From assembly GCA_020832455.1 (NCBI GenBank), contig JAFIEQ010000003.1, positions 1,393-65,392 of the forward strand: DNA of 64,000 nt, read 5' to 3'. The notes under the pieces are model-generated. The model made no database searches. It saw nothing but the letters and a program-made list of their open reading frames with translations, and was not told where the DNA came from. The position numbers and the translations under genes were made by a program. Below, in pieces: positions 2,509 through 44,917 of this stretch. The stretch is from Nitriliruptoraceae bacterium. Lineage in GTDB: Bacteria; Actinomycetota; Nitriliruptoria; Nitriliruptorales; Nitriliruptoraceae. The stretch's first letter is position 1. Each line of letters opens with the position of its first letter.

Positions 2509-5500
2509 TCAGGGCGTCTCCTCGTCCACCGGCCAGACCCGGATGTCGGTGAGCATCTGGAACTGACCGTGCAGGCCATCGCCCATGTAGCTCGGCGCGT
2601 GCAACACGATGCTGGCCTGCCCTGCCTCCTCGACATCGTCGGCCAGCAGCACCGGCCGTCCCCCGTCGGCGGCGCTGGGCAGCGTGCCGTGGCGCAGGAA
2701 GTTCACGTCTCCCTTGCAGCGGTTGAACCCGTCGAGTGGGGTGAACGGGCCGCCGCGCAGCGACTCCATGCGCATGTGGGCCCGGACCGGGAGATGATCG
2801 CCGACCTCGACGACGGGCAGGATCTCGTCCCCGACCCGCAGGATGGCGCGACCGAGCGGATCGCCGGTGAGGCGGAAACGCTTGCCGCTCTGGTCGACGC
2901 ACGGGGTCGGCCCGTTCCCTCGACCACGACTGATGTGGATCGGTCCGGCGAGCGCCTCGACCTGGATGATGCGCGTCCGATCGGCCTCCACGCCACCCGG
3001 ACGTTCCACCCGCCCGGACGGGCCCTGCGGTGGTCCGGCGTACACCCCGGGGAACAGGGCGGTCTCCGGACGCATGTAGTCGACCCGCACCTCCCAGTCG
3101 ATCCGCCACTGCCGCCCCGGGGTGGTCACCCGGGGGTTCCACACCCCCGGCACGAGGTTGCCGTCCTGCAGCCACCCGACGACGTCCGGATGCTCCGTGC
3201 CGACGAGCCAGGTCAACGCATCGCCGTACACCGCGCGGTTGCCCCGCTCGTCCCGGAGCTCCAGCGCGAGGTGGTAGCCGGTGAGCGCGCACGCGGTGTC
3301 GATCACGACGCGGGGTGCTTGTTCGAGGATGTCGGTGGTCGCGACGTGCGGGATGCGTTCCGCGGGACATCCCGGCGGCGGCGGGGAGGCCGCGTCGTAG
3401 GTCCCGCGTGGCCGGGCGACCAGGGTCGCGGTCACGGGCCGGTCCGCGACGATGTCGACCCCCAGCACGTTGCGATCCTGGCCGTCCACCCGGGTGAGCA
3501 CCTGCGTGCGGGCCCCGTCGAGCACCGGGAAGTCCCGATCCCGCACGTCGACGGGCACCGGGAACACGACCCACCCCGCCGGCGACGAGCGCCCGGTGGA
3601 GACCACGGCGACCTGGATCCGGCCGATCTGCCGACCGCTGTCGACCTCCGAGAGGGGCAGGTCGTAGAGGTCGACACACCGGTCGCAGGCCTGCCCGTGC
3701 CGCGGATGGGCCGGATCGGTCACCAGCCGGACCCGGAAGGTCCGTCGCTGGACGTCGCGGTAGTCCCCACGCACGCTGGTCAGCAGCTCGAGGCGCCCCC
3801 CCTGCAACCCGTCGGTCACCTCGAACCGGCACAGCTCGTGCGGGAGCGGATCGAGCGTCGCGCCCGGGATGCGCGCCATGGTGCATCGCTCGTCGGACCC
3901 GTCCGCCTGGAACAGCACGATCGCGCCCCGCGGCAGCCCGGCCACCCGGTCGGGGTCGACGAACGACCCCTCCGTCGCGACGACCTGCACCGTCGGCCGT
4001 TCCGGCGGCTGCAGGATGTGGGCCTCACGGTCGACGACCCGGCGCGCGCCACCGACGAGCTCCTCCCACCGCAGGCACAGCTCGAAGATCGCCCCGTCGG
4101 ACGGATCGAGTTCCGTGGCGAACCGTTCGATCGCATCGAACGCCGGATCGCTCCCGACGGGTGCGACCACTCCGACCCTGCCCCCGGGCGCGAGCTCCAC
4201 GATGCGGTCCGGATCCGCCTCGAGCGAGCGGGACTCCACGCCCGGGCACTGCGAGGTCAGCGCAGGTTGCGAGGGATCGCGCACCACCACGGTCGCCGCC
4301 ACCTCGACCCCAGGACGGGTCCAGGCGTTGATGCGGACACGCCGGTCCGTGATGGTGTTCACCGTGGTCGCCGGCCGCTCGCCCGCGGGAGGCGCCGGCG
4401 CCAGCACGCGCGCCTCGAGGGGAGACCAGCCCTCCGCGATGGCATTGTGGGCGCGACCGCGGATCTCCAGCAGCTCCCCCGGTGTCGGCGGACGGGCCAC
4501 GGCGACGCAGTGGTCCACGATGCGGTTGCCCCGGGCGCGCTGCTCCGCGATCCGGGTCGGATCGACGCGCTGCGGGAGCACGATGTCGTACCAGGGCGCG
4601 TCCTCGCCCACCGCGGTGACCGTCAAGCCGATCCAATCCGGGTACCCATCGAACGTGAGGCGTAGCGGGAACTGATCGTCGTCCCAGTCGAGAAGCCTCG
4701 CGCAGCGCGGTCCCGGGTCGACGGCGGCCCCGATCAGGCGCAGCGGCGTGTTGAGCGGCAGCACCGTGGCCGAGGTCCCGTCCCCGCAGTCGACCGGCTC
4801 GCCGTCGAGCTCGGCCGCACAGACGTCGAGGAACTCGGGTTCGAACGCCCGCAGGACCATGTCCCGCAGCCTCGGGTCGTCGAACCCGAGCAGGGGCCCC
4901 GGGAGGAGGAACCGCTCGTCGTCGTCGCGCAACGCGTCGTCGTCGACCGCGGGCGGATCATCGCTCGGGACGGCCTCGTCGTCCGCCGGCGGGTCGGTGA
5001 CCTCGTGCAGGTCGAGGACGCGCGGCGGGGGTCCGTCGTCTCCCTCGACCGGCGCGTCGCCATCTGCCGGACCGCCAGCGTCATCGGCACGGCCGGCGGC
5101 GTCAGGGGCGACGGGATCGTCATCGGTGGTCGGGGCGGCCCCGGCCGTGCCCTGCGCCGGTGCCGGAGCGGGCCTCGCCGCCGCGAGTGCGGCCTCGACG
5201 ATCCCGTCGGGATCCTCGGGGGTGTGACCCCAGGCGCGCAGGTCGACGGAGTCGGGCCGGGGCGCCCCCCCCCCCGGGCCCCGCCCCGCCGCCGGGGGGG
5301 GGCCCCCCGCGCGGCCGGGCGGGCGGGGGGGCGGCGGCCCCCCCGACCCCCGGGGGCAGCGGCCCGGAGGCCGGGAGCTCGATCAGCGGCTCGTCGTCGA
5401 CGACGGTGCCCTCCTCGCCGACCACCGTGAGGGCCTCCTCGAGGTCGAACTCGGCGGGCACCACGCCCGTCGCCGCCAGCGCCTCCTCCAGCGGGTGCTC

Positions 5501-5689
5501 GGGGTGCAGATCGAAGGAGCCGACGGGCTCCGCGACCGGTACGACCCAGGGCTCGGGCGGTGGGTCGGTCGCGATCGCCCGGCTGACGGTGAACGCCAGC
5601 AGGCCGAGGGCGACCGCACCGACCACGGTCAACGCCAGGGGGACCACCGTGCCGAAGCGGCCGGTCGCCAGGGGACCTCGAGCGGTCAT
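2509..5689 (-). pseudogene. Large single-pass membrane-anchored Cys-containing protein of unknown function (paralog 1); frame broken by the GC-only tract at 5253..5345
   Basis: ORF 5120..5689 supplies an N-terminal TM anchor (VVPLALTVVGAVALGLLAF) and WVVPVAEPVGSFDLHPEHPLEEA, matching the N-terminus of the downstream paralog. ORF 2509..4932 supplies the rest, and its frame is open upstream to the tract (..PDSVDLRAWGHTPEDPDG..). The two parts differ by one frame. GGAG lies 6 nt before the ATG at 5689. Confidence 0.7.
5253..5345. repeat. GC-only homopolymer-rich tract 1 (93 nt with no A or T)
   Basis: Direct reading: 5253..5345 contains only G and C, with runs up to C11 and G9, and sits inside the paralog-1 gene. 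Confidence 0.9.
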
Positions 5690-5710
5690 GGGGAGCTCCT
5701 CACAGGTCGA

Positions 5711-8700
5711 TCAGGACCGGCGGTCACGCGGGTCCGGGGTGATGCGCAGGACCCCGTCGACGAGGTAGAGGTAGGGGATGTCCCAGTCCTCGAAGCCGCG
5801 CGGTGTCGACGGCGTCCGTGGCGGTCGGTCCGCCACCCAGAGGGTCTCGCTGCGCGCGACGAGCGGGACCGTGGGGCGTGCGGCGAGCTCCTGGGCGGCG
5901 TAGCGGCGGGTCGGTGCGTTGAAGTCGTCGCCGAACGCGCCGACGACCCGCATCGGCTTGGTCGCCACCTGACGGTTGCCATGGCTGTGGAAGCCGCAAC
6001 CCCCGACCATCCACATCTCGAGGTGGCCGGTGCCGCCGATCACGACCTCGTCGGGAACCTCGACCTCGAAGGTCCGCGCGGGGTGCTCCGCGCGGGGGTC
6101 GATGCACCGACGTCCGTCGCCGGCATCCTCGCCTGCGCGCAGCACGGCCGGTCCGAGCCGGACCTCCAACGAGCCGAGGAACGAGTGCGCCGCGCGACGG
6201 CGTGGCGTCTCCATCCAGCTCCGAGAGATCCGGGCGGGATCACCCTGCCAGGTGAGCTCCGGGGCGACCTCGAGCCGGATCTGGGTCTCGACCTCCCACC
6301 GGTGTCCGTCGGTGGTGTGCACGGGCCGCCATCCCGACGCGCGGTAGTCATCACCCGCGGCCGGCAGATCCTCGTGGACCCGCGTCGCGAGCAGCCACGT
6401 GACCAGGTCGCCCTGGACCGTGCGCGCCCCGTCCTCGTCGATCAGTTCGACAGCCAGGCGGTAGCGCGTCAGGGCACACGCATCCTCGATGCGCAGCTGC
6501 CCACCGACGCGGAACTGCTCCGAGCCGACCAGGTGGGGCAGCCGCTCCGCCGGGCAGCCGAGGGGGACGGGGGCGTCCGCGTCGCGCTGGGTGATGGGGC
6601 GCGCCGCGAGGCGGACCTGCACCGGCCGGTCCGCCCGGTAGTCGAAGACGATCCCGCGCCGGGCGTCGTCCAGGTCGGCCGTGATGGTGCTGCGGACCGT
6701 GTCCAACACGGGACGATCGGGCGTGACGTCCTCGTGGGACAGCGGGAACGTCAGCCAGCTCCCGTGGGGGTCACCCCCCACGGCCACACTGATCCGGACC
6801 GCCCCGGCGGGGACCAGCCCGCGCGCATGCGATCGGGACGAGGACCAGCCGTAGACGGTGTAGGTGTCTCCACAGGCCAGGCAGTCGCCGTGGTGTCGCG
6901 AGCTCAGGTGGGACGGCAGTCGGATCAGGTGGTCCGCCGCGTGGACCTCGCGACCGCCGGAGCCCTCGGACTCCATCGGCAGACTCAGGATCACCTGCTG
7001 CCGCTCGTCGGTCAGCTCGAACCGACAGAGCCGGACGTGCTCCGCGAGCTCGCCACGCAGCACGTCGGTCACGCTACGGGTGCACGTCTCGGCGAGCGGG
7101 ACGTCCTGGATCAGGTGGTTCGTGCCCAGTGTCGTGCCGTTGCCGGCCGCCCGCAGCTGCCGGACGTCGGCCCAGGCCCGGCCGGTGACGCGCCGACCGT
7201 CCGCGCCGACCTCCCGGAAGAAGGACTCCGTGCTCGGGTGCAGGAGGACCTCGACGACGGGCCGCTCCGGTGGGGCGACGAGGTGCGACTCACGTTCGAT
7301 CACGACCCGGTCCCCGTCGAGTACGCGGGTCCAGGTGAGGCAGAGCTCGAAGACCGGCGGTTGCGCGTCGAGGTCGGACGTGCGGAAGGCCAGGTCGTAG
7401 ATCAGCTCGGTCGTGAACGACGCGTCGAACGCGCGCCCAGGAGCGGACGCCAACCGCTGGACGGGTCGGATGCGCACGGGTGCACCCGGCCGGGCGTAGG
7501 AGCCGCTGGCCTGCCAGGCGGCCCCTTCGAGCTGCTGGGGATCGCACTGCGTCCCCAGTCCGCGCACGGCGGGATCACGGACCACGAGGTGCGCGGCGAC
7601 GAGCCGCTCACGGCCGGACGCGACCCGCGCGAGCAGCCGACGGTCGCCGACCGGCTCCAGCACCGTCGGTGGCCGACCCTCCACCTGCGTCAGCGGCAGG
7701 GGGAGCGTGAACCGCACCCGCTCGTAGCCCCAGTCCTGTCCGCGGGCCTGGACGTGCAGCTCGTAGCTGTTCGCGCCCGCCTGCCGGGGCAAGCGTTGGC
7801 AGTGGTGGTAGACGCGCTGTCCCCAGCCGAGGAACTGCTGGGCCGCGCGCAGGGGGACCTGGGTCCGCTCCTCGGTCACCGAGCGGTCGCGATCTCCCTG
7901 CCAGCGCAGGACGATCTCCCGCGGCGGCTGGTTGAACGAGACCCGGACCGGGACACCGGGGCCCTCCTCGAGATCCGCACACCGCGGGCCGTGGTCGATG
8001 GCCGCGGTGACGACCTCGAGCGGTGGGAACAGCGCAGCGATGGTGCCGCCCATGCCCTCCCCGCAATCGATCGGCTCGTCGTCGATCGTCCCGGCGCAGA
8101 CGTCGAGGAAGTCGGGATCCGACGCGGGGCCGAGCAGCAGCCCGGCGCCGTCGTCCGCGATCCGCTCGTCGGGCACGGTACGCATCGACTCCGCGAGCAG
8201 CGCATCGAACACCGCCGGGTCGCTGCCCTCGCCGCCCCCCTCGTCAGCGAGCACGTCGTCGTCGGGCGGCTCGGGGTCGGACCCGGAGCCGCGCGCCACG
8301 ATGCCGACCCCGGCGGGGACCTCGGCCCACCGGCTCGAGCCGGTTCCAGCCGTGTCCGGGTCCGGCGTCCCGGGACGGTCGTAGCCCTGCGCGGAGAGGT
8401 CCACCCGGGGGGTGTCCACGCCGGGCACGACCAGCGAGGTCACCGTGTCCGGCGATGCCTCGAGCCGAGGATCGACCAGCAGCGCACCGACCGCTTCCAG
8501 GAGCTCGGAGGTGGGTCCGTCCTGATCCGGGGCCGCCAGCTCGGAGACCTCACCCCCGGATGCAGCAGCGGCCCGCCCGAAGGCCTCGTCAAGGGGCAGC
8601 TCCGGGTCGAGTGGGAACGAACGGATCGGTTCGGCGACCGCCGCGATCCAGTCCTGACGGGGATCGGCCGACGCGCCGGCGACGGCCCGCGTGAGCCCGA

Positions 8701-8779
8701 AGGACGCGACACCGACGAGCACGATGCCAACGAGCACCACCGCGATCGTCCGCGGACGGGAGCGGGACAGGGCACTCAT
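5711..8779 (-). CDS. Large single-pass membrane-anchored Cys-containing protein of unknown function (paralog 2), about 1,022 aa
   Basis: Continuous ORF. The ATG at 8779 overlaps the upstream stop (ATGA). N-terminal signal anchor RTIAVVLVGIVLVGVASFGL, an acidic/Pro-rich linker, then about 800 aa sharing collinear blocks with 2509..5689 (FLDVCAG..DCGEG, FELCLTW..PPERP, LCRFELTD, GCPAERLPH..ACALTRYRLAVEL). Confidence 0.75.
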   Translation of the reverse strand: MSALSRSRPRTIAVVLVGIVLVGVASFGLTRAVAGASADPRQDWIAAVAEPIRSFPLDPELPLDEAFGRAAAASGGEVSELAAPDQDGPTSELLEAVGALLVDPRLEASPDTVTSLVVPGVDTPRVDLSAQGYDRPGTPDPDTAGTGSSRWAEVPAGVGIVARGSGSDPEPPDDDVLADEGGGEGSDPAVFDALLAESMRTVPDERIADDGAGLLLGPASDPDFLDVCAGTIDDEPIDCGEGMGGTIAALFPPLEVVTAAIDHGPRCADLEEGPGVPVRVSFNQPPREIVLRWQGDRDRSVTEERTQVPLRAAQQFLGWGQRVYHHCQRLPRQAGANSYELHVQARGQDWGYERVRFTLPLPLTQVEGRPPTVLEPVGDRRLLARVASGRERLVAAHLVVRDPAVRGLGTQCDPQQLEGAAWQASGSYARPGAPVRIRPVQRLASAPGRAFDASFTTELIYDLAFRTSDLDAQPPVFELCLTWTRVLDGDRVVIERESHLVAPPERPVVEVLLHPSTESFFREVGADGRRVTGRAWADVRQLRAAGNGTTLGTNHLIQDVPLAETCTRSVTDVLRGELAEHVRLCRFELTDERQQVILSLPMESEGSGGREVHAADHLIRLPSHLSSRHHGDCLACGDTYTVYGWSSSRSHARGLVPAGAVRISVAVGGDPHGSWLTFPLSHEDVTPDRPVLDTVRSTITADLDDARRGIVFDYRADRPVQVRLAARPITQRDADAPVPLGCPAERLPHLVGSEQFRVGGQLRIEDACALTRYRLAVELIDEDGARTVQGDLVTWLLATRVHEDLPAAGDDYRASGWRPVHTTDGHRWEVETQIRLEVAPELTWQGDPARISRSWMETPRRRAAHSFLGSLEVRLGPAVLRAGEDAGDGRRCIDPRAEHPARTFEVEVPDEVVIGGTGHLEMWMVGGCGFHSHGNRQVATKPMRVVGAFGDDFNAPTRRYAAQELAARPTVPLVARSETLWVADRPPRTPSTPRGFEDWDIPYLYLVDGVLRITPDPRDRRS

Positions 8780-9990
8780 GCGAAGTCGCACCAGAAGAGC
8801 TGGACGCGGTTCCCACTGCTCGACGCCAGGGTCCGGGTAGGGCCGTCGACCGGCACGGCGCGGGCCTCCCACCGGATCGTCGCGTTCCCGAACACCTCGA
8901 TCCCGTTGGCGCTCGGCTGGTAGGGGCCGAGCTCACGGCGGTAGCGGTTGGCGGGGCCGCTCACGAGCGGGCTCATCGTCTGCCAGGAGGTCCAGCTGCC
9001 ATCGCCGACCCGGGAGCGCAGCTGCACCGAGGCCAGCCCGCTCGGGTGGCTCGCCTCCACGGTGATCGCGGAGGTCAGGGGCAGGTTGGTGTCACAGGCG
9101 CCGATGTTCGCGGCGACGGCCTCCCTGATCTGGGCGTTGGAGCGGCTCACGAACGTCAGCGTCGGTTCGACGACAGGCGGCGGCTCGGGCGCCGGCTCCG
9201 GTGCGGGAGACGGTGGGGGCGGGCTCGGGGACGGCGAAGGAGACGGGCTCGGCGACGGTGCGGGACTCGGCGACGGAGACGGGCTCGGCGACGGTGAGGG
9301 ACTCGGCGACGGCGAGGGATCCGGGCTCGGCGACGGCGAGGGACTCGGCGACGGCGAGGGATCCGGGCTCGGCGACGGCGAGGGATCCGTCGAGGGCGCC
9401 GGCGCCGCGGTGACGGGCGCGTCGTCGCTCGGGGTCGGGTCCTGGTCCGGCGCGGAGTCCTCCTCCAGCTCGTCCTCGACCGGCTCAGGGTCGTCCGGTT
9501 CCTCGGCGGCGCCCGGCTCCTCGGTGCTCGGAGGCTCGTCCGATCCGTCCGTGTCGGGCAGTGCCACCACGACCTCGGTGACCACGCAGTCGGGCTCGAC
9601 GACAGCCAGGGACGCGAGCTCCTCGTCCGGGACGACCATCGCCGTGGGCATCCACACGCGGTCCGACCCGTCGGTCGGCGCGCGCAGTTCGACCCACGAC
9701 CCGTCCTCGGACCGACCCGTCAGGAAGATCCGATCGCCGCGGGAGAGCTCGCCGGCGACCAGGTCGTCGGGACAGGCGTGGTAGGGCACCCCGCCGGTGG
9801 ACGGCGGGACCACGTCCACGTCGGCAGCCGACATCGCGATGCCGGCACCGACGCCGACCGCGGTCGCGGCCGCACCGACGGCGAGTCCGATCAGGATCCG
9901 GTTCATGCGTCGCAACCTCCGTCCGCGGGTCAGCACCCGCGCGTAGATCTCGGTCCGTGGCGTCGGAGCGGGCCAGCGCAGATCACTCAT
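8776..9990 (-). CDS. Membrane-anchored protein with an SH3-like segment, a long (Ser-Pro)n linker and a C-terminal Cys-bounded domain; cotranscribed with the ECF sigma factor
   Basis: The ATG at 9990 overlaps the sigma-factor stop (ATGA). After 30 cytoplasmic residues comes the TM helix ILIGLAVGAAATAVGVGAGIAM, then GDRIFLTGRSEDGSWVELRAP (SH3b-like), about 70 residues of SP/DP repeats, and a C-terminal domain ending QLFWCDFA. Confidence 0.7.
   Translation of the reverse strand: MSDLRWPAPTPRTEIYARVLTRGRRLRRMNRILIGLAVGAAATAVGVGAGIAMSAADVDVVPPSTGGVPYHACPDDLVAGELSRGDRIFLTGRSEDGSWVELRAPTDGSDRVWMPTAMVVPDEELASLAVVEPDCVVTEVVVALPDTDGSDEPPSTEEPGAAEEPDDPEPVEDELEEDSAPDQDPTPSDDAPVTAAPAPSTDPSPSPSPDPSPSPSPSPSPSPDPSPSPSPSPSPSPSPSPSPAPSPSPSPSPSPSPPPPSPAPEPAPEPPPVVEPTLTFVSRSNAQIREAVAANIGACDTNLPLTSAITVEASHPSGLASVQLRSRVGDGSWTSWQTMSPLVSGPANRYRRELGPYQPSANGIEVFGNATIRWEARAVPVDGPTRTLASSSGNRVQLFWCDFA
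9181..9402 (-). repeat. In-frame tandem nucleotide repeats encoding the (Ser-Pro)n linker
   Basis: Repeated ctcggcgacgg(c/t)ga(g/c)gg units. Includes a 42-nt period duplication (9311..9352 versus 9353..9394) whose first 33 nt are identical. Confidence 0.85.
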
Positions 9991-29714: not shown

Positions 29715-32700
29715 TCAGCGCGTGCCGGCGGCGTCGACGGCCCGGCACGCGGCGACGAACCGGGGGTGCGGGGCCACCCCGAGGTGCTCGAGCGCCGTCG
29801 AGGTGGCCGCGAGCACCGCCCGCGCATCGCCGGCACGTCCGGCATCGACGAGCCGCCGGGCGGCCCGCACGGCCCGCCGTTCGTCGTGGAGATCGGCTCG
29901 ATGCGCCTCGACGAGCCAGGTCAGCACCTGCTCGTCGTCCCCCCGGGCCTGCGCCGCTGCGACGAGCTGGTCGAGCAGCCCGAGGCGACGGACCGCGACG
30001 TGCCGACGGACCGCATCGAGCGGCACGCTGGTGGTCGCGAGGGACACGTCCGCCAGCACCTCCCCCCGCACCAGCGCCAAGGCATCGAGGGCCGCGTCCG
30101 TGTCCCCGTCCCGGGTCACGCTGCCGGCGAGCCGATCGAAGCGGGCGAGGTCGGTGTCGACCGTGGCCCCGAGCACCAGTTGATCGTCGCCGAGACGCTC
30201 CACCAGCTCCGGCGCCACAGCCCGCAACCGGTACAGGATCTGGCGCAACCGCGCCCGGGCGTCCGCGGTGTCCAGCCCCGGCCAAAGCGTCTCCACCAGC
30301 GCGTCGATCCGCTGCGGGCCCTGCGCGATCGCGAGCAGGCCAACCACCGCGCGGGGCAGCCCACCCGGCAGCTTGAGGACCTCCTCCCCGCGACGCAGCC
30401 GCAGCGGCCCGAGGATCTCCAGGGTGCAGCCCGCCTGTGCTGCCTCCCGCCACCGATCGAGGGCCTCCGCAGCCTCCGGTTCCAGCCACCGTCCGAGCTC
30501 CGGGTGGCCGTACGCGTCCGCGTCCGCGGCCGCCTCGGTGCACAACCGTTCCACCCCGGGATCCCCGGCACGCAAGGCCGCGTAGGCTCGCAGCAGGCGG
30601 CAGCGGACCCGCTCGAAGCGCTCGATGCCCGCATCCGCCTCGATCGACGGCCACAACCGGATGGCCTCGTCCGGGTCACCCCGCCGCGCGGCGACCACGA
30701 ACTCGGCCAGGACGACCAGCTCGGGTTGCTCAGCACGGCGCGCGCGGGCGCGGGCGAGGAACGCATCCGCCTCCTCGTGCGCACCGGCGCGGTCGATCAG
30801 GTCGACCATCGTCGCGAGGTAGGTCGCGAAGACCCCGGTCTCCTCCCACGCCGCCAGGTGGTCGCCGGCCTCCCGTGCCCAGGCCACGGTGCGGACCGGA
30901 TCGCGTTCCAGCGACGACTGCAACGCCAGCCCCCAGGCGGCGTAGGCCCGCGCCCCCCCGGCCCCCCCCCCCCGGGGGCGGGGCCCCCCCGGCGCCCGGG
31001 GCCGCCCCCCCCCCAGGGGGCCGGCCCGCCCCCCCGGGCCCCGCCCACGGGGGGCCCGGCAGCGGTTTCCCGCCACGACTGCAACGCCAGCCCCCAGGCG
31101 GGTTAGGCCCGCGCCCGCGCGTCCCGCACCGCGCGGGCGAGTTCCAACGCCTGCTCGAGGTCAGCCGAGCCCTCCTGGGGACGGCCGAGCCAGACCTTGA
31201 CCTCACCGAGGTAGGTCAGCGCCGTCGCCCGGGCCCGGCCGTCCTGCTCCGCCAGCGAGACCGCGGCCGCGAAGGTCTCCTCCGCCCGCGCGAGGTCCCC
31301 GTGCAGGTCGACGTTGAACCCGAGTTGCACCAGCGCACGGGAGGCCTCGTGGGGCTCGCCGCACGCGCGGAACAGCTGTGCCGCCCGACGCAGCGACCGA
31401 CGCGCGACCCCGCGGTCTCCCTGCCAGGCGTGGAGCATGCCCCGGACGACGAGCGCGCGTGCCACGGTCCCCGACTCGGCGTCGTCGGCGGCGCGCAGGG
31501 CCGCATCGATCCGGGCCGCCACCTCGTCCCGCGGCTGGGAGTAGACGTCCATCGCCAACTGCTCGACCTCGAGGGCGCGACGCAACACCGGGTCGGACGG
31601 CGCCCGGCCGTCGGCGGCAGCGGTGCGCTCCTCGGCATCCAGCAACGTGCGGAGGCGTCCGAGCACCGCCGCGTGGTCGTCGGGTTCCCCGGCCCGCGAG
31701 TAGGCCCGGGCGAGCTCGAGCAGCACCCGCGGGTAGCGGTCGACCACCCGACGGGGCAGGACGTCGATCGCGGCGATGATCTCGTCGGCGGTCAGGTGGG
31801 CGCGGGCGCCGGTCGGCAACGCGCTGAACAGCCGACCGAGGTCCTCGAGCGCACCGGCGGACCGCAGGATGGCGATGGCCTCTTCCGGGCGATCGCGGTC
31901 CAGATGGCAGCCCGCGATCGCACGCGCCACCTCGACCCGCATCGGCGCCACCCGACGCAGCACGTCCGCGATCGCCCCCGGGAAGTGGGAGCGGCCCTGC
32001 GTATCGGTGGTGATCGGCAACCCCGCACGGAGCAGCCCATCGACGAGCGGTTCGGCGTCCCCCGGCGACGCGGCCGACGGAGCCTGGGTCGCGCGACCCA
32101 TCGTCCGCTGCACGACGTTCGCGAGCTCCTCGTCCATCCAGGGCAGATGGGCCAGGTTCGCGGCCAGCAGGCGCAACTCGGCGGGCAGCGCGGACGCCAC
32201 CTGGTCGGAGAAACGGGACGCTGCGTCGACCGGAAGACGCCGGGCCGGTGCGGCCGACGTGGCCCGCGTACCCGGTGCGGCCCCGTTCGTCGACGCGACC
32301 GCATCGGGGCCCTCGAGCCGCCGCGCGGCCTGGGCCACGACGAAGGTCAGCGCCGCCGGCCAGCCCTCGGTCGCTGCCAGCAACCGATCGGCGTCGAGCG
32401 TCGTCGCCTCCAGCCCGAAGCCGTCCTCGATCAGCCGCGTCACGTCGTCGACGTCGAAGCGCAACTGCTCCGGGCCGAGCAGACGCACGTCGGGACGCGT
32501 CCGGAGCCGCGCCGCGCCGGACGGCAGCCGGCGGGCCGCGATCACGAGACGCAGCGGGGTCGGCCGGTGCTCGACCACCTGCACGAGCAGGGCCCCGTCG
32601 TCCCCCAACAGGTGGGCATCGTCGACGACCAGCAACAACGGCGCGGTGCCGTCGAGCACCTCTAGCGCCGCCTGCAAGGCCTCCGCCGCCCCGTCACCCG

Positions 32701-32962
32701 GCTCGGCGAGCGCGGCCGCGGCCGCGTCCTCCCCGAGCCCGATGAGCGCACGACGCAGCGGATGCAGCACCCGACGATCCCCGCCACCGTCCCCGTGCAC
32801 GGTCACCTGGGCGACGCGCGTCGGACCCAACGAGCTGCGCAGTTCCACCGCCAGCGTGGACTTGCCGAACCCCGACGGCGCCTCGATGACCACGACCGGA
32901 ACGGTGTCGAGCCCGGCGAGCAGTCGCTCACGCCGCACGTGGTGCGTCGGGAGTTCGAACAT
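29715..32962 (-). pseudogene. Large regulator: N-terminal MalT-like AAA ATPase, TPR region, C-terminal SARP-type winged helix plus BTAD; frame broken by GC-only tract 2
   Basis: ORF 31103..32962: VVVIEAPSGFGKST (Walker A), LLLVVDDAHLL (Walker B), then TPR-like repeats. ORF 29715..31076: LEILGPLRLRRGEEVLKLPGG..RIDALVETLWPG..ARARLRQILYRLR plus a BTAD-like helical tail. Deleting 161 nt (one repeat copy plus the tract) gives a single 1,028-aa ORF. Confidence 0.75.
30945..31060. repeat. GC-only homopolymer-rich tract 2 (116 nt with only 2 A and no T), bracketed by a 42-nt direct repeat (30914..30955 and 31075..31116, 40/42 identical)
   Basis: Direct reading of the sequence. Runs up to C13. The repeat copies are offset by 161 nt. 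Confidence 0.9.
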
Positions 32963-35278: not shown

Positions 35279-35359
35279 AGCTGGTCCTGGTCGTCGGTGG
35301 TGCGGGAGGTGGTGCACCGCGCCGGCCGGTCGGGGGACCCAGCCGGCGCGGGCGCTTGT

Positions 35360-37525: not shown

Positions 37526-37576
37526 CGGTCTCCTGGGGTCCGGGCGCCGCCGGGGGTACGTGCCACCGGTCGTCGG

Positions 37577-38172: not shown

Positions 38173-38201
38173 TTGACAACCATCCTCATCGCACGCACCA
38201 T
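38173..38201 (+). promoter_or_regulatory. Candidate sigma-70-type promoter for the amidohydrolase gene
   Basis: A perfect TTGACA (38173..38178), a 17-nt spacer, then cACCAT (38196..38201), about 140 nt upstream of the ATG at 38341, in a locally AT-richer patch. Confidence 0.3.
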
Positions 38202-38340
38202 AGCGACCTGTCCGCTAGGCGGATAGCTGTCCGACGCGGTGGGAGCGCGCGCGGATCGCGGCCGGCAACGTGCGGTCGCGGTGTCGTCGGCCTCGACCTG
38301 GACGTCGGTCCGAGGAGACCCCACGACCGGGAGCACTGGC

Positions 38341-39813
38341 ATGGCTGACGCCACATCGACCGACATGACCACCGACCGACCCAAGGTCTTCCGTAACGGC
38401 CTCGTGCTGACGATGGACGCGTCCAACACCGTCATCGAAGGGGGCGACGTGCTCGTCGTCGGCAACCGCATCGAGGCCGTGGGGACCGACCTCGAGGTGC
38501 CCGAGGGCACCGTGGAGATCGACGCCGCCGGCGGCATCGTGATGCCGGGGATGATCGACACCCACCGGCACATGTGGCAGACCGCGATGCGTGGGTACGG
38601 CGCCGACTGGACCCTCACCCAGTACTTCGTCTTCTACTACCTCAACTACGGCAAGGTCTTCCGGCCGCAGGACATCGCCGCCGGCAACCGCCTCGCCGCG
38701 ATCGAGGCGATCGACGCCGGCGTGACCACGGTCGTCGACTGGTCGCACGGCCTGCAGACCGTCGACCACGCCGAGGCAGCCGCCGACGCCCTGAGCTCGG
38801 TGCCCGGCCGCTACGTGCTGGCCTACGGCAACATCCAGGCGGGTCCGTGGGAGTGGGCCCCGAGCCCGGAGGTCGGCGCGTTCCTCGAGCGCAACCGCGG
38901 CACCAAGGAGGACCTGCTGCAGGTGCAGCTCGCCTTCGACGTCACCGGCGACCCGGAGTTCCCCGAGAAGGCCGCGTTCGAGGCCGCCCGTGAGCTCGGC
39001 ATGCGGGTGACCACCCACGCTGGCGTGTGGGGCGCCACCAACGACAGGTCGATCTCGCTGATGGCCGAACACGGCTTCATGACCCCCGACGTCACCTACG
39101 TGCACGCCACCACGCTCTCGCCCGATTCGTACCACATGATCGCGGCCTCGGGTGCCTGGGCATCGGTCTCGACCGAGTCCGAGCAGAGCGCCGGGCAGGG
39201 CTACCCCTCGACCTGGCAGCTGCGCAAGTACGGCATCCCGATCTCCCTGTCGATGGACACCAGTGTCTGGTGGAGCGGTGACATGTTCAGCGCGATGCGC
39301 TCGACGCTCAGCGCGGACCGCTCCCGCGACCACCTCGAGCACCAGAAGGACGGCGACACGGTCGTGTTCAACGCGTTGCGTGCCGAGGACGTGGTGCAGT
39401 ACTGCACCTCCGACGGCGCCAAGGCGCTCGACCTCGACGCGGTCACCGGATCGCTCGAGCCCGGCAAGCGGGCGGACGTCGTGCTCATCAAGAACGACGC
39501 ATCGCCGGTGATGTACCCGATCCTCCACCCCTACGGCAGCGTCGTCTACCAGGCACAGCGCGGCGACGTCCACACGGTCATGGTCGACGGCCACGTCGCC
39601 AAGTACGACGGCTCGCTCGTCGACGTGGACCTGCAGCGGGCCAAGGACGAGGTCGGCCAGACACTGGACTTCCTGCGTGCCGAGATGGGCGAGGACGAGT
39701 GGACGGCCGGCATGTCGCCCGACCTGCCCGAGCAGCAGCTGTTCGACAACCCCTACCAGTACACCGACTTCGACGGCGGCCGCGGCGCCGTCGGCGTCAT
39801 CCCACCCAAGTGA
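38341..39813 (+). CDS. Metal-dependent amidohydrolase (TrzA/AtzA / aminohydrolase SsnA-like family)
   Basis: GIVMPGMIDTHRHMWQT (HxH metal motif), ..VTTHAG.., ..TYVHAT.., ..SLSMDTS.. and C-terminal ..GKRADVVLI.. blocks. Confidence 0.85.
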   Translation: MADATSTDMTTDRPKVFRNGLVLTMDASNTVIEGGDVLVVGNRIEAVGTDLEVPEGTVEIDAAGGIVMPGMIDTHRHMWQTAMRGYGADWTLTQYFVFYYLNYGKVFRPQDIAAGNRLAAIEAIDAGVTTVVDWSHGLQTVDHAEAAADALSSVPGRYVLAYGNIQAGPWEWAPSPEVGAFLERNRGTKEDLLQVQLAFDVTGDPEFPEKAAFEAARELGMRVTTHAGVWGATNDRSISLMAEHGFMTPDVTYVHATTLSPDSYHMIAASGAWASVSTESEQSAGQGYPSTWQLRKYGIPISLSMDTSVWWSGDMFSAMRSTLSADRSRDHLEHQKDGDTVVFNALRAEDVVQYCTSDGAKALDLDAVTGSLEPGKRADVVLIKNDASPVMYPILHPYGSVVYQAQRGDVHTVMVDGHVAKYDGSLVDVDLQRAKDEVGQTLDFLRAEMGEDEWTAGMSPDLPEQQLFDNPYQYTDFDGGRGAVGVIPPK

Positions 39814-39818
39814 GGGGT

Positions 39819-39899
39819 CGCGGGGGGGGGGCGCAGGCCGGCCCCCCCCCCCCCCCGGGGGGGGGGGGGGGGGCGCCCCCCCCGCCCCCCCCCCCCCGC
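39819..39899. repeat. GC-only homopolymer tract 3 (81 nt with a single A)
   Basis: G10 (39822..39831), C15 (39842..39856) directly abutting G17 (39857..39873), C8 (39876..39883) and C13 (39885..39897). It lies between two convergent stop codons. Confidence 0.9.
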
Positions 39900-39917
39900 A
39901 CCCGGGTGAGCTCGGGC

Positions 39918-40349
39918 TCAGCCCGCCTGCAGCGTCGCGTCGAGCTCGATGGTCGCACCGGCGAACAGCTTCGACACCGGACACCCCTCCTTCGCGGCCT
40001 GCGCGTGCCCGAGGAACGTCGCCTCGTCCATCCCGGGGACGATCCCGACCGTGGTCAGCACGACCGTGGTGATGGTCGGGGCACCGTCGACCATGTCCAG
40101 GGTCACCGCCGCGTTGGTGCGGACCGAGGTCGCGGGGGTCCCGCCCTGGGCGAGCATGTTGGACAGCGCCATGGAGTAACACGCGGCGTGGGCGGCCGCG
40201 AGCAACTCCTCGGGGTTGGTCTCCGTCCCATCCTCGAAACGGGAGACGAAGGTGTAGGGCCCGGAGAACAGCCCACTGCCCAGGCTGAGCTCGCCGCCAC
40301 CACCCTTCAGGTCGCCCTGCCACTGTGCGGAGGAGGTCCTGGTCGGCAC
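39918..40349 (-). CDS. osmC: OsmC-family peroxiredoxin
   Basis: ..AQWQGDLKGGGGELS..NPEELLAAAHAACYSMAL..AKEGCPVSKL.. carries the two conserved Cys. GTG start with GAAGGGA upstream. Confidence 0.85.
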   Translation of the reverse strand: MPTRTSSAQWQGDLKGGGGELSLGSGLFSGPYTFVSRFEDGTETNPEELLAAAHAACYSMALSNMLAQGGTPATSVRTNAAVTLDMVDGAPTITTVVLTTVGIVPGMDEATFLGHAQAAKEGCPVSKLFAGATIELDATLQAG

Positions 40350-40497
40350 GTTGGTCCCTTCGGTCGCGACGGGCGAACGGGTCGGGCCCCGTCGTCGGGA
40401 CCACGGTGGACGCCGATGCCCGTCCTCGCGGCGTCCTGCGGCCAGGCTAGTGAGCCCCATCCCGTGACCGCGACGGCCACGGGACCATCCGGACCGC

Positions 40498-42015
40498 TCA
40501 CCCCGGCTCGCCCACGGGGAGGTCGACCACGAAGCAGGCACCACCGGTCGCGGCGTCCTCGATCGCGACCGTCCCCCCGTGGAGGCGGACGAACTCGGCC
40601 ACCAACGTCAACCCGATGCCGGTCCCCGGCGAGGGCGCGTCGGCGGCCCCAGGCCCCTGCCGGAAGGGCTCGAACATCGTCGCGCGCAGGTGCTCCTCGA
40701 TGCCGGGTCCGTCGTCCTCCACCACGATCCGAACGCGGTCCGCGGTCGACGCGACCCGCACCACGACCGCGGCACCCGCCCCGGCGTGGCGGTAGGCGTT
40801 CGCGAGCAGGTTGACCACCACGCGCTCGACCTTCACGCGATCGATCCAGGCGACCGCCTCGACCAGCTCGAGCGCCGCGGTGGGCGCGTGCTCCGACGCG
40901 ATCCGATCCACGAGGGCTGCGACATCGACCCGGGTCCGGGTCAACGTGGTGACCCCGCGCCCGGCCCGCTCGATGTCGAGCAGGTCATCGAGCAGCCCAC
41001 GCAGTCGATCGGCCTGCCGGGCCAGCCGGGCGCTCAGATCCCGGACCTGCGCGGGCTCCAGGTCGTCGAGCCGGCTCGCGAGGGTCAGCGCGAAACCGTG
41101 GACCGCGGTCAGCGGCGTGCGCAGCTCGTGGGACACGGCCTGCAGGAACAACCGACGCAGCTCGTCGACCCGGCGCAACTGCCGCGTCGCCTCCCGCTCG
41201 CGGTGCAGCGCCTCCCGTTCGCGGTCCAGTGCCGCGCGCTCCCGGTCGAGGGCCTGCTCCAGGGTCTGCTTGGCCCGGCGTTCCTCGGTCACGTCCCGGC
41301 AGATCCCCAGGGCCGCCTTCAGCCGGCCCTCCGCGTCGTGGATCGGGACCTCGGTGACGGAGATCGTCCGCACCGTGCCGTCCTTGCGCGTCCAGTCCCA
41401 CTCGAGCGGCCAGTCCGGGTCCGCGCCGAGCCGGTTCTGCGCGAACCGCTCGACGATGTCCGCTGGGACGTTGGTCCACAGCGGGGAGGGGTGCGCGAGC
41501 AGCTCCTCGGCGGAGAACCCCATGATGGAGACGAAGGCGGGGTTCAGGTCCGCGAGGTGCATCCGTGGGACGAACCCGAAGCGGTACATGCCCACGTCCG
41601 ACGACGCCGAGAGCGCGCGGGTGCTGGCCGCGAGCTCGGCGAGCTCCTGCTCGACGGCGATCCGGTCGCGGATGTCACGCCCCATCAGGACCAGCCCGCG
41701 GCGCGCACCGTCGACCATCAGCGGCGCCGCGCTGAAGCCGACTTGCACGCGGCCGGCGGGGGTCACGACGTCCATCTGCAGGTGGGCGCGGGAGGCGACC
41801 GCCACCTCGAGGAGCCGGCGCTGGGCCGCGGCGCGCTCCTCCTCGGCGATCAGCTCGAGCGCGTCGGATCCCACCAGCTCCGCCCCCGGACGTTGCAGCA
41901 ACGTCTCGGCGGCCGGGTTCGCCTGCTGGATCAGCCCGCCCTCGTCGAGCACGAGGACCGCGAGCGGACCACAGGTGACCACGGCCTCGGCCACCGACTG
42001 CGGATCCTCCGCCAC
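40498..42015 (-). CDS. Soluble sensor histidine kinase with two PAS domains
   Basis: No TM segments. PAS-like LAVLVLDEGGLIQQANPAAETLL and ..WDWTRKDGTVRTISVTEVPI.., the H-box SHELRTPLTAVHGF, and a HATPase_c end GTGIGLTLVAEFVRLHGG. GGGAGG precedes the GTG at 42015. Confidence 0.85.
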   Translation of the reverse strand: MAEDPQSVAEAVVTCGPLAVLVLDEGGLIQQANPAAETLLQRPGAELVGSDALELIAEEERAAAQRRLLEVAVASRAHLQMDVVTPAGRVQVGFSAAPLMVDGARRGLVLMGRDIRDRIAVEQELAELAASTRALSASSDVGMYRFGFVPRMHLADLNPAFVSIMGFSAEELLAHPSPLWTNVPADIVERFAQNRLGADPDWPLEWDWTRKDGTVRTISVTEVPIHDAEGRLKAALGICRDVTEERRAKQTLEQALDRERAALDREREALHREREATRQLRRVDELRRLFLQAVSHELRTPLTAVHGFALTLASRLDDLEPAQVRDLSARLARQADRLRGLLDDLLDIERAGRGVTTLTRTRVDVAALVDRIASEHAPTAALELVEAVAWIDRVKVERVVVNLLANAYRHAGAGAAVVVRVASTADRVRIVVEDDGPGIEEHLRATMFEPFRQGPGAADAPSPGTGIGLTLVAEFVRLHGGTVAIEDAATGGACFVVDLPVGEPG

Positions 42016-42074
42016 CGTGACCTCCCGGTCGCACCGACAGGGAGCTGCCCGCGGCGCCGAGCAGAGCCTAACGT

Positions 42075-42162
42075 CGCCGGCGGGCCCCCGCGGCGCCCCC
42101 CCCCCCCCCCCCCCCGCGCTCCGGCAGGATCAGCCCCCACCCCCCCCCCCCCCCGCCCCCGG
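42075..42162. repeat. GC-rich homopolymer tract 4 (C20 at 42096..42115 and C15 at 42140..42154)
   Basis: 42075..42119 and 42140..42162 contain no A or T. The octamer ggatcagc occurs at 42127..42134 and again at 42161..42168, where it covers the aceE stop codon. Confidence 0.9.
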
Positions 42163-42163
42163 A

Positions 42164-44917
42164 TCAGCGGGTCACGTCATCGGTCGAGCCACCCTGCCCG
42201 AAGAAGGGGATGCGCTCGAAGGCGAGCTCGTAGCGCTCGATCACCTTGGGCAGCACGTCCGCGTCGAGCGCCCCCTGCTTGACCAGCTCCGCGAGCACGC
42301 AGTAGGTGATCGACGCCGCGTCCACCCGGTGGTAGCGGCGCAGCGCCTCACGCGTGTCCGAGCGACCGAAGCCGTCGGTCCCGAGGACGGCGAACGGTCC
42401 CGGCACCCAGTCGGCGATCTGGAAGGGCGTGGCCCGCATCCAGTCGCTGACCGCCACGTAGGGACCCTCGGTGCCCTCGAGGATGCGGGTGACCAACGGG
42501 ACCCGGGGATCGCCGTCGGGGTTGGTGCGGTTCCAGGCCTCGGTCGCGACGCCGTCCCGCAGCAGCCGGTTCCAGCCGGGAGCCGACCACACGTCCGCCG
42601 CGACGTCCCAGTCCTCGGCCAACAGCTGCTGGGCACGCAGCGCTTCGTTCATGATCGTCCCGGAGGACAGGATGTTCGCGCGGTGCTGGCCCTGCTCGCC
42701 CTCACGGAACCGGTAGAGGCCGTCGATGACCTGCTGATCGTCGACGTGCTCCGGCATCGCCGGCTGCACGGCCGGCTCGTTGTAGACGGTGAGGTAGAAG
42801 ATGACGTCCTCGCCGCCCTCGACGGTCTCGTCGGAGTACATGCGCTTGAGGCCGTGCTCGACCAGGACCGCGAGCTCGTAGGCGAACGACGGGTCGTAGG
42901 CCTCGACACCCGGGTTGGACTGCGCCATCAGCAGCGAGTGTCGGTCCTGGTGCTGCAACCCCTCACCGTTGAGCGTGGTGCCCCCGGCGGTGGCGCCGAT
43001 CAGGAAGCCACGCGAGCGCTGGTCGGCGGCCGACCAGATCGAGTCGGCGGTGCGCTGGAACCCGAACATGGAGTAGAAGATGTACAGCGGGATCAACGGC
43101 TCGCCGTGGGTGGCGTAGCTCGTGCCGACGGCGTGGAACGACGCCATCGAACCGGCCTCGGTGATCCCCTCGTGGATGATCTGGCCGTCCTTGGCCTGCT
43201 TGTAGGACAGCAGCAGTTCCTGATCGACGGGCTCGTAGGTCTGTCCGAGGTGGTCGTAGATCTTCGCCGTCGGGAACCAGGAGTCCATCCCGAAGGTGCG
43301 CGCCTCGTCCGGGATGATCGGCACGATCCGCTTGCCGAACTCCTTGGTCCGGAGCAGGTCCTTGAACAGGCGCACGAGCGCCATGGTCGTGGCGACCTGC
43401 TGCTTGCCGGACCCCTCCTTGAGGCCACCGAACGCGTCGTGCTCGGGCAACGTCGGGACGGTGAACACCGTGCGGCGCTCCGGCACCGCCCCCCCGAGTG
43501 CCGATCGACGCTCCTTGAGGTACTCGATCTCCTCCGCGTCGTCACCCGGGTGGGAGTAGGGCGGCAGGTCGCCCTCCAGTGCCTCGTCGGAGACGTCGAG
43601 ACCCAGCCGGTCCCGGAAGGCCTTCAGCGAGTCCGACGACAGCTTCTTCATCTGGTGGACGGCGTTGCGCGCCTCGAAGTCGGGACCGAGCGTCCAACCC
43701 TTGACCGTCTGTGCCAGGATCACGGTCGGTGCACCGCTGGTCTGCATGGCCGCCTGGTAGGCGGCGTACACCTTGCGGTAGTCGTGACCGCCGCGCCGCA
43801 GGTGGGCGATGTCGTCGTCGGACCAGTCGTCGATCAGCTTCTTGAGCTTCGGGTTGGCGCCGAAGAAGCCCTCGCGGATGTGCTTGGGCCCGCGTGCGGG
43901 ATAGGTCTGCAGCTCGCCATCCGGCACCTCGTTCATCCGGGCGATCAGGGCGCCGTCGACGTCCTTGGCGAGCAGCGGATCCCACTCCCGGCCCCACAGC
44001 ACCTTGACGACGTTCCAGCCCGCACCGCGGAAGACGCCCTCGAGTTCCTGGACGATCTTGCCGTTTCCGCGCACCGGACCGTCGAGCTGCTGCAGGTTGC
44101 AGTTGATCACGAAGGTCAGGTTGTCGAGGCCCTCGCGGCTGGCCACGGCCAACGCCCCGAGCGTCTCGGGCTCCGCGGTCTCCCCGTCGCCACCGAAGAA
44201 CCACACGTGCTGGTCGGAGGTGTCGGAGAAGCCCCGGTTGTGCAGGTAGCGGTTGAAGCGCGCCTGGTAGATCGCGTGCAGCGGCCCGAGCCCCATGGAC
44301 ACGGTCGGGAACTCCCAGAACTCGGGCATCAGCCGCGGGTGCGGGTAGGAGGACAGGCCCCCCGGTTCCACCTCGGCGCGGAAGCGGTCGAGCTGCTGCT
44401 CGTCGAGCCGTCCCTCGAGGAACGCGCGGGCGTAGATCCCCGGCGAGGCGTGCCCCTGGAAGAAGACCTGGTCACCACCGCCCGGGTGGTCCTTGCCGCG
44501 GAAGAAGTGGTTGAACCCGACCTCGTACAGCGACGCGGCCGAGGCGTAGGTGCCGATGTGCCCGCCGGTGCCACGTTCCACGTTGGTGCGGTGCACCATG
44601 ACGGCCGCGTTCCAGCGGATGTGGTGGCGGATGCGGCGTTCGATGTCCTCGTCGCCGGGGAACGACGGCTCACGCTCCGGGGGGATCGTGTTGATGTAGT
44701 CCGTCGTGGTCAGCGACGGGATCCCGATGTTCTGCTGACGGGCGCGCTCGAGCACCTTGAGCAGCAGGAACCGACCCCGCGCCTTGCCGTGTTCCTCGAC
44801 GACGGCATCGAACGACTGGAGCCACTCGGTGGTCTCCACCTCGTCGATGTCGGGGTACTGCGCGGGGAACCCATCGGTGATGATGGGGTTGTCCACGAAC
44901 TGCTGCTGTTCACGCAT
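42164..44917 (-). CDS. aceE: Pyruvate dehydrogenase E1 component, homodimeric type
   Basis: Full-length AceE-type sequence (..[23 protein letters not shown].., ..GDGETAEPE.., ..[11 protein letters not shown].., ..[16 protein letters not shown]..). Start chosen at MREQQQ (44917); the ORF is open to 45019. Confidence 0.95.

Follow-up and report, generated by a model that had tools for sequence, protein, structure and literature searches.

Assemblers based on de Bruijn graphs and gap fillers join overlapping sequence ends, and such joins can be made by short spurious overlap of low-quality extremities. The usual products of gap fillers are stretches of N or clean tandem duplications, and two-colour Illumina chemistry is known for poly-G read tails. 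Sequence-specific Illumina errors, in turn, start at inverted repeats and at GGC and depend on read direction; at terminator hairpins of a high-GC genome, errors of opposite directions meet, resulting in loss of coverage and assembly gaps (PMC3141275).

The four tracts of almost pure G/C found in the window (the whole 64-kb stretch of DNA analysed here) resemble the pattern described by Nakamura et al. 2011 (PMC3141275) in their onset at a G/C-rich inverted repeat, the meeting of opposite-direction errors and the breaking of assemblies. The terminator hairpins of that study have their counterparts in a 10-bp GC-only hairpin at site 2 and, at site 3, in a position matching the terminator hairpin of a relative. 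However, gaps and false SNPs were reported there, whereas here erroneous read ends appear to have been joined, leaving 80-160 nt of false sequence in a contig. The likeness to tip joining lies in a duplicated junction, a 42-nt repeat with degraded extensions that meet at a shared 13-mer, although, unlike in the usual products of gap fillers, the duplicated parts have decayed strongly toward G/C. Three of the five tips seen in Logan contigs are poly-G in reading direction (tract 3 left G10 and right G24, tract 4 right G18). In contrast, tracts 1 and 2 are built of both C and G runs, in which the true sequence can still be followed, and the site-2 tip in contig L006 runs into poly-C in reading direction; dark-cycle G calls alone therefore do not explain the pattern. 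Our analysis indicates, with a probability of about 0.93, that the four tracts all arose from errors of sequencing and assembly in a metagenome-assembled genome (MAG) built from short reads.

Four A/T-free tracts in the window

The tracts are arranged as follows:

Tract 1: 5253..5345, a 93-nt A/T-free run inside a minus-strand gene
Tract 2: 30945..31060, with A/T-free runs at 30945-31014 (70 nt) and 31016-31046
Tract 3: 39819..39899, longest A/T-free run at 39836-39899 (64 nt)
Tract 4: 42075..42162, with A/T-free runs at 42075-42119 (45 nt) and 42140-42162

A sequence-only reading of the window had reported these four coordinate ranges together with homopolymers of C20, G17, C15 and C13, all of which were found again, and gene coordinates confirmed its placement of tracts 1 and 2 within large genes and of tracts 3 and 4 at gene boundaries. 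Its judgement that such tracts are far beyond expectation even at high GC was upheld by both a chance estimate and control loci. Apart from the four tracts, no A/T-free run in the window exceeds 25 nt, and the chance expectation in 64 kb at 72.7% GC is 0.01 runs of at least 45 nt and 2e-9 runs of at least 93 nt. The control set comprised 80 loci of other high-GC Actinobacteria from 80 other assemblies (1.50 Mb in total), in which no A/T-free run reached 40 nt; the maxima were 37 nt for A/T-free runs and 8 for G/C homopolymers. The tracts take up about 0.6% of the window and have no detectable common sequence, their pairwise similarity not exceeding that of run-order shuffles (z -1.2 to 0.6).

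Comparison with independent assemblies

The product of the amidohydrolase gene in the window is 100% identical to MCC5946971.1 of a Nitriliruptoraceae MAG (locus tags JJT89_). Logan contigs of three runs from the same population (SRR13422627, SRR13422628 and SRR13422629) covered about 36 kb of the window; these runs probably belong to the same project as the MAG, such that the assemblies are independent and the underlying data perhaps not. Outside the tracts, the window and the Logan contigs showed 0 mismatches over about 36 kb, and the seven mismatches, found in four contigs, all lay within tracts 3 and 4. Together with two errors in the second copy of the 42-nt repeat at site 2, this combination of identical flanks and non-reproducible interiors is what an artefact would leave. 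Breakage of independent assemblies, a second such sign, was seen at all four tracts: 7 of 16 Logan contig ends fell at tract edges (5344, 30959, 39821, 39833, 39874, 42080 and 42138). Only site 2 was crossed, and no contig among the assemblies of the three runs spanned sites 1, 3 or 4.

A false insertion in a regulator gene

At site 2, the Logan contig L005 (SRR13422628) runs cleanly through the junction without tract 2, and thus the feature is missing from an independent assembly. The contig is collinear with the window at an offset of 23280 and then of 23441, a difference of 161. The site comprises the following elements:

29715..32962, minus strand: AAA ATPase / TPR gene, truly 1028 aa, whose homologues carry a BTAD transcriptional-activator domain
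30914..30955: 42-nt repeat, copy 1, the correct copy, identical to L005
30956..31116: 161-nt insertion (tract 2 and the second repeat copy), missing from L005
30956..31025, plus strand: left tip of tract 2, a degraded copy of true 31117-31186, A/T replaced by G/C
31010..31074, minus strand: right tip of tract 2, a degraded copy of true 30849-30913, meeting the left tip at CCAGGGGGCCGGC
31075..31116: 42-nt repeat, copy 2, with two errors relative to L005 at 31102-31103

The two repeat copies are 40/42 identical, as had been noted from the sequence, and deletion of the 161 nt gives the same result in any register inside the repeat. Read from the left, the window first deviates from the true sequence at 30956; read from the right, it does so at 31103/31102. 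Removal of the insertion restores a conserved gene without any indel: the resulting translation matches the Logan protein P0140 (1028 aa) exactly, and the collapsed gene aligns gap-free over the junction with seven homologues. JJT89_00795 (619 aa) and JJT89_00790 (402 aa), both annotated as hypothetical proteins in GenBank, are therefore two halves of one 1028-aa gene that has been falsely split.

The interior of the insertion consists of degraded copies of the opposite flanks. The right half of tract 2 resembles the true left flank (z = 6.1, 0/3000 decoys) and the left half the true right flank (z = 2.9, 18/3000 decoys), while controls with swapped flanks were null, and the two tips overlap in the 13-mer CCAGGGGGCCGGC. 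Most differences between copy and flank involve the loss of an A or a T, as was proposed from the sequence: in the left tip no true A/T position survived, 15 being changed to G/C and one deleted, and over the whole tract 23 of 30 became G/C, with 5 kept and 2 deleted. The substituted positions were A and T about equally (10 A, 13 T), and were accompanied by 17 G<>C swaps and several indels. The tract contains C12, C10 and several C7 runs, none of which occurs in the true sequence of the site, and L006, from another run, matches the first 4 nt of the insert and then ends. The true junction forms a GC-only hairpin of 10 bp (z = -2.4), and it is 3 nt inside the 5' arm of this hairpin that the window and the true sequence part. 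The artefact at site 2 thus follows from the absence of the tract in L005, the restored reading frame and the degraded flank copies, and is shown directly.

A frameshift in a second large gene

Tract 1 interrupts one gene:

2509..5689, minus strand: gene of ~1035 aa with an N-terminal hydrophobic anchor, falsely broken by tract 1

This gene, in which no Pfam domain was found, is represented in GenBank by the 807-aa fragment JJT89_00685 (MCC5946942.1). The tract acts as a frameshift, the coding frame upstream differing from that downstream, and a single open reading frame would be restored by a deletion of n = 1 mod 3 (e.g., 76, 79, 82 or 85 nt). Where the window has GPLPPGV[tract]RPDSVDLRAWGH, the full-length homologues P0137 (1063 aa, 57% identity) and P0138 (1004 aa) have GPLPPGLS---RPDEPVDLRAYGH, and in P0137 the two flanks are at most 3 residues apart. 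Contig L008 (SRR13422629) ends at 5344, the right edge of the tract, and has 0 mismatches up to 9325. The frameshift, the homologue alignment and the contig break at the tract edge are all consistent with an artefact at this site also. Copying of the flanks is moderately supported by alignment: the left half of the tract (5263-5300) resembles the right flank (z = 3.0, 11/3000 decoys), the other direction gave z = 1.5 in the same decoy test, and local alignment of the whole tract with the left flank gave z = 4.2.

Intergenic spacers at sites 3 and 4

The remaining tracts fill two spacers with G/C sequence that is not reliable:

39815..39899: tract 3, between the convergent amidohydrolase (stop 39811-39813) and OsmC-like (stop 39918-39920) genes
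42081..42160: tract 4, between the aceE stop (42164-42166, minus strand) and the start of a PAS histidine kinase (42015, minus strand)

The aceE product is pyruvate dehydrogenase E1. Logan contigs stop at 39821, 39833 and 39874 in tract 3, with mismatches at 39833, 39875 and 39884, and at 42080 and 42138 in tract 4, with mismatches at 42139 and 42155-42157. One contig has C24 in tract 3 versus C8GC13 in the window, and at the right of tract 4 the Logan contig has C18GACCCGGATCAGC versus C15GCCCCCGGATCAGC in the window. Because contigs break on both sides and the interiors differ between assemblies, the artefact reading extends to these two tracts. It is more likely that both sites hold a real GC-rich spacer that has been replaced or padded by junk, and the real elements are probably terminator hairpins; in the closest relative, the syntenic L009, the 67-nt spacer at site 3 has a perfect 13-bp GC hairpin of mixed sequence, which is a terminator. 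The short repeats previously noted are present (cacccAAgtgag / cacccGGgtgag at tract 3 and ggatcagc twice at tract 4), but in two independent assemblies the first copy at tract 3 continues into gggtcgcgggggggggg and not into the sequence 3' of the second copy. Flank copying was not significant at either tract in the decoy test (z -0.3 to 0.7).

For these two sites only, it seems quite unlikely that the spacers truly hold long G/C homopolymers or G-quadruplex / i-motif sequence, noisy but real, or, at either or both of them, that such an intergenic tract of at least 15 nt beside a terminator blocks short reads. The first ~20 nt of tract 3 (ggggtcgcgggggggggg, G10 included) were reproduced at its left edge by two runs, C24 and C18 directly adjoin unique sequence in Logan contigs of two runs, and the intergenic position means that the reading frame gives no argument against extra sequence. 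Tracts 3 and 4 also fit the G-quadruplex pattern (at least four G- or C-runs of at least 3 nt, loops of at most 7 nt) on the minus strand, and tract 3 on the plus strand as well; all four tracts match this pattern on at least one strand, including tract 2, which is not genomic. Against this reading, similar runs in tract 2 are absent from the known true sequence, the interiors of tracts 3 and 4 show substitutions and not only length differences between assemblies, the 80 control assemblies contain no G/C homopolymer above 8, and L009 has an ordinary hairpin at site 3. If real tracts do exist at these sites, what the window shows as junk would reflect, in blurred form, a real and unusual element.

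Unlikely biological origins of the tracts

A real GC-only mobile or templated element present in part of the population, with the 42-nt repeat as its target-site duplication, is highly improbable. The direct repeat that flanks the insert at site 2, the one run that lacks the insert and the contig of another run (L006) that follows its first 4 nt would be consistent with such an element. However, the four tracts share only run composition, no transposition mechanism predicts an insert interior made of degraded copies of both flanks, known target-site duplications do not resemble a 42-nt repeat of which one copy has two errors, and the assembled consensus would have lost the function of two large genes that look essential. 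Neither a common sequence with defined ends nor a short exact target-site duplication, as in IS or MITE-like elements, was found. Targeted hypermutation of the diversity-generating retroelement type, or AT-to-GC conversion of a local duplication, would account for the loss of A or T in most differences between copy and flank, but almost certainly did not operate here, given that A and T were both hit rather than adenine only, that G<>C swaps and indels occur, that the duplication is missing from an independent assembly and that no variable-repeat / template-repeat architecture is present.

A proposed model for the origin of the tracts

The artefact reading can be framed as three steps, in which we infer that the errors come from dephasing and that the assembly went wrong by joining tips. 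At G/C-only palindromes or hairpins, reads of both directions would lose register, and the drifting calls would take the locally dominant base, giving runs of C or G in DNA of 73% GC. Correct spanning reads would then be scarce, and the error-laden read ends would persist as two tips in the graph. Finally, the assembler or a gap closer may join these tips by a short chance overlap of their G/C-rich tails. At sites 1 and 2, where the true flanks are directly adjacent, this would duplicate the junction and leave a degraded copy of each flank in between; at sites 3 and 4, where genes are separated by a genuine GC-rich spacer, the true sequence would be replaced or padded by junk. In an exploratory comparison, a local-majority model with a lag of 3-5 nt reproduced 85-87% of tip calls, against a plain identity of 51-58% and a null of 56-62%. 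The polarity of the runs, G versus C relative to read direction, was inconsistent, and a simple "dark cycle = G" explanation therefore does not cover all tips.

The sequence-only reading had favored a consensus or gap-closure artefact, which the absence of tract 2 from L005 and the 161-nt insertion bear out, over a new class of GC-only insertions, which was not supported. Its proposed copying of both flanks over the junction is supported strongly at tract 2 and moderately at tract 1, and is not supported at tracts 3 and 4 (z at most 0.7); the alignment of tracts with flanks that it called for placed tract 2 in both directions and tract 1 in one direction above decoys, and tracts 3 and 4 not. 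Similarly, the picture of two ends running past a join and decaying into G/C is supported directly at site 2 and is consistent with site 1, but the overlapping flanks it implies are not supported at sites 3 and 4.

Implications

These results bear on curation and not on biology: in a public GenBank MAG, at least four stretches are false sequence, and two large genes appear there as fragments, among them the ~1035-aa gene of which JJT89_00685 covers 807 aa. A screen for A/T-free runs of at least 40 nt with homopolymers of at least 10 nt could detect this class of error in high-GC MAGs. Large-scale scans could mistake such tracts, if they are not flagged, for pseudogenes, new insertions or G-quadruplex elements.

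Four G/C-only tracts in the record

The four near A/T-free tracts of the window are not a real genomic feature. A whole-window scan bore out the tracts and homopolymer runs that a sequence-only reading had described, and delimited the A/T-free runs within them as follows.

A/T-free runs of the four tracts, from the whole-window scan
Tract 1: 5253-5345, run of 93 nt
Tract 2: 30945-31014, run of 70 nt, then 31 nt at 31016-31046
Tract 3: 39836-39899, run of 64 nt
Tract 4: 42075-42119, run of 45 nt, then 23 nt at 42140-42162

Outside the four tracts the longest A/T-free run in the whole window is 25 nt, and all homopolymers of at least 9 nt lie within them, including C20, G17, two C15 and C13. At the G+C content of the window (72.7%), chance would yield 0.01 runs of at least 45 nt in 64 kb and 2e-9 runs of at least 93 nt. 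An empirical base rate was taken from 80 loci (1.50 Mb) of other actinobacterial assemblies, collected for a different purpose, with at least 70% GC in 59 of the 80 and with neither the MAG itself nor a close strain among them; their maxima were 37 nt for an A/T-free run and 8 for a G/C homopolymer. Because of this chance expectation and these control maxima, the tracts are real features of the record and, as the earlier reading had held, far beyond expectation.

Comparison with independent assemblies

Logan is a project that assembles public sequencing runs independently, and eight of its contigs (runs SRR13422627, SRR13422628 and SRR13422629) were retrieved via exact matches to proteins encoded beside the tracts. 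The amidohydrolase encoded at 38341-39813 matches MCC5946971.1, the amidohydrolase family protein of a Nitriliruptoraceae bacterium MAG, with 100% identity, and the identical protein was found on Logan contigs too. In gap-free placement the contigs equal the window at every base outside the tracts. Contigs L001 (36291-39821) and L008 (5344-9325) showed 0 mismatches, and L002, L003 and L004 a total of 7, each inside tract 3 or 4 (39833, 39875, 39884, 42139 and 42155-42157). The interiors thus differ between assemblies: at the right end of tract 3 the C8GC13 of the window corresponds to C24 in L003, and at the right end of tract 4 the C15GCCCCCGGATCAGC of the window corresponds to C18GACCCGGATCAGC in L004.

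Contigs broke at all four sites. Tract edges account for 7 of the 16 Logan contig ends (5344, 30959, 39821, 39833, 39874, 42080 and 42138), the tracts making up about 0.6% of the window, and L003 extends over exactly the 2.2 kb from tract 3 to tract 4. The remaining ends fall either in unremarkable sequence or inside a tandem repeat. The latter, at 9220-9404, is imperfect, with periods of 18, 24 and 42 nt and the consensus CTCGGCGACGGCGAGGGA...; the end of L008 at 9325 lies inside it, so that this break in the assembly was caused by the repeat and has no connection with the G/C tracts. Contigs L005 and L006, from two different runs, share an exact start at 23281, where the sequence looks ordinary (77% GC, without a long A/T-free run); this common start could reflect strain variation, or a further systematic read failure that was overcome by the MAG assembler.

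A false insertion at tract 2

Tract 2 is an artefact in which two ends overran a join. The 10,930-nt contig L005 (SRR13422628) runs through the site and is collinear with the window at an offset of 23280 to its left and 23441 to its right; the window therefore holds 161 extra nucleotides, corresponding to the tract plus one copy of a 42-nt repeat (30914-30955 and 31075-31116). L005 encodes an unbroken 1028-aa protein with AAA ATPase and TPR domains, several homologues of which also have a BTAD transcriptional-activator domain. Deleting the 161 nt from the window predicted this protein before the comparison with L005 was made, and the prediction equals the L005-encoded protein (P0140) at every residue. 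Seven homologues (916-1015 aa) align gap-free over the junction. GenBank splits this gene (29715-32962, minus strand) into JJT89_00790 (402 aa) and JJT89_00795 (619 aa), both annotated as hypothetical proteins, under the accessions MCC5946963.1 and MCC5946964.1.

Compared with the true sequence, the window first departs at 30956 when read from the left; from the right it departs at 31103 and 31102, both mismatches of the second repeat copy, with the departure growing from 31074. The earlier reading had proposed that each flank is copied across its junction with A/T positions collapsed into G/C, and we aligned each tract half to the opposite flank, scoring it against 3000 decoy segments. At tract 2 flank copying beat the decoys in both directions: the left part (30956-31025) reproduces in degraded form the true sequence 3' of the repeat (z = 2.9, 18/3000 decoys), and the right part (31010-31074) does the same for the true sequence preceding it (z = 6.1, 0/3000 decoys), swapped flank comparisons at this tract being null. 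Both copies join at a common 'CCAGGGGGCCGGC'. At the 30 true A/T positions, 23 were changed to G/C, 5 were kept and 2 were deleted, A and T being changed about equally often; further differences from the true flanks comprise 17 exchanges between G and C and a few indels. Adenine-specific mutagenesis of the DGR type was rejected because of this substitution spectrum and because L005 lacks the duplication. A mobile element was likewise rejected, as the tracts have nothing in common beyond the composition of their runs and what looks like an insert at site 2 is made up of its own flanks.

A frameshifted gene at tract 1

There is good support for explaining tract 1 in the same way, by two ends that overran a join. 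A minus-strand gene starting at 5689 (MTARGPLATGRFG..., with a hydrophobic anchor) enters the tract in one frame, and the clearly coding sequence below it, to a stop at 2509, lies in a different frame; deletion of a number of nucleotides equal to 1 mod 3 gives a single protein of about 1035 aa. A collection of 5.8 billion proteins contained only three relatives of this protein and no 100% full-length match to the intact form. One relative, JJT89_00685 (MCC5946942.1), is an 807-aa GenBank fragment, a truncated call of the tract-1 gene itself; the others are full-length, P0137 (1063 aa, 57% identity, 97% coverage) and P0138 (1004 aa). P0137 reads GPLPPGLS---RPDEPVDLRAYGH where the window reads GPLPPGV[tract]RPDSVDLRAWGH; in this homologue, therefore, no more than three residues separate the sequences on either side of the tract. 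One end of L008 falls exactly on the right tract edge. Flank copying was detected in the left half, whose sequence tracks the right flank (z = 3.0, 11/3000 decoys), and was weak in the opposite direction (z = 1.5 for the right half against the left flank in the decoy test); local alignment of the whole tract against the left flank gave z = 4.2.

This gene (2509-5689, minus strand) and its neighbour (5711-8779, minus strand) are tandem paralogues encoding proteins of about 1020-1035 aa, with similar N-termini (a hydrophobic anchor, then ...EPW/IAAVAEP..SF.L.PE.PL.EA...) and no Pfam domain in either. They look like members of a rare, uncharacterised family.

Intergenic spacers at tracts 3 and 4

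The amidohydrolase and OsmC-like genes converge on tract 3, which separates their stop codons. Tract 4 is bordered on one side by the aceE (pyruvate dehydrogenase E1) stop codon and on the other by a PAS histidine kinase gene, whose start is at 42015. The contig breaks and irreproducible interiors support an artefact here as well, in a modified form in which a spacer was filled with junk rather than two ends simply joined. The overlapping flanks proposed for both sites did not hold: alignment of halves to opposite flanks gave no significant signal at either tract (z between -0.3 and 0.7, 3000 decoys). The short repeat that the sequence-only reading proposed at tract 3 is passed by two runs, which read on into 'ggggtcgcgggggggggg'; the true flanks are therefore not directly joined to each other but have a stretch of genuine spacer between them.

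Among the relatives compared at orthologous sites, only contig L009 (CAYTLZ010000183.1), the closest syntenic relative (78% protein identity), was informative, and for site 3 alone. Synteny was absent downstream of the amidohydrolase gene in Egicoccus sp. AB-alg2 and in a JGI contig, and no orthologous site was found for site 4. In L009 a 67-nt spacer (5496-5562) lies between the converging amidohydrolase and OsmC genes and contains a perfect 13-bp GC hairpin, GAACGGGCGGCCC-gctg-GGGCCGCCCGTTC, which looks like a bidirectional terminator. By eye, the reproducible left edge of tract 3 (39814-39825, GGGGTCGCGGGG) is almost fully reverse-complementary to the right edge (39894-39903, CCCCGCACCC), with one bulged base; these edges could be the two arms of a real terminator hairpin. 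We infer that sites 3 and 4 are real GC-rich hairpin spacers that the reads did not resolve. That they carry a real G4, i-motif or homopolymer element is very improbable, as the same kinds of run are demonstrably false in tract 2, which counts against accepting the C15-C24 runs at face value.

Possible origin of the tracts

The false sequence may have arisen where reads lose register at G/C-rich structured sequence, so that calls shift towards whichever base predominates locally; correct k-mers spanning the site would become too rare, and error-laden ends would persist as tips and then join via a short chance overlap. This mechanism agrees with the sequence-specific errors published for Illumina data, which begin at inverted repeats and GGC motifs and depend on read direction; at terminator hairpins of a high-GC genome, where errors of opposite direction converge, they lead to lost coverage and to gaps in the assembly (PMC3141275). 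The true junction at site 2 folds as a 10-bp G/C-only hairpin (z = -2.4 vs shuffles), and the departure on the left side begins 3 nt inside its 5' arm. Flank folds at sites 1, 3 and 4 were no better than shuffles, and a hairpin trigger is thus shown only for site 2; the relative L009 suggests that one may have acted at site 3. In an exploratory analysis with several settings tried, a crude model that sets each call to the majority base among the most recent 3-5 true bases matched 85-87% of calls at both tips, compared with 51-58% for plain identity and 56-62% for the null. Two-colour chemistry yields dark-cycle G calls, which would also fit the poly-G found along the reading direction in three of five Logan tips; a simple dark-cycle explanation was rejected, the polarity being inconsistent across tips.

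The value of these results lies in curation: the public record contains sequence that is false, and three of its annotations are fragments of what are two intact genes.
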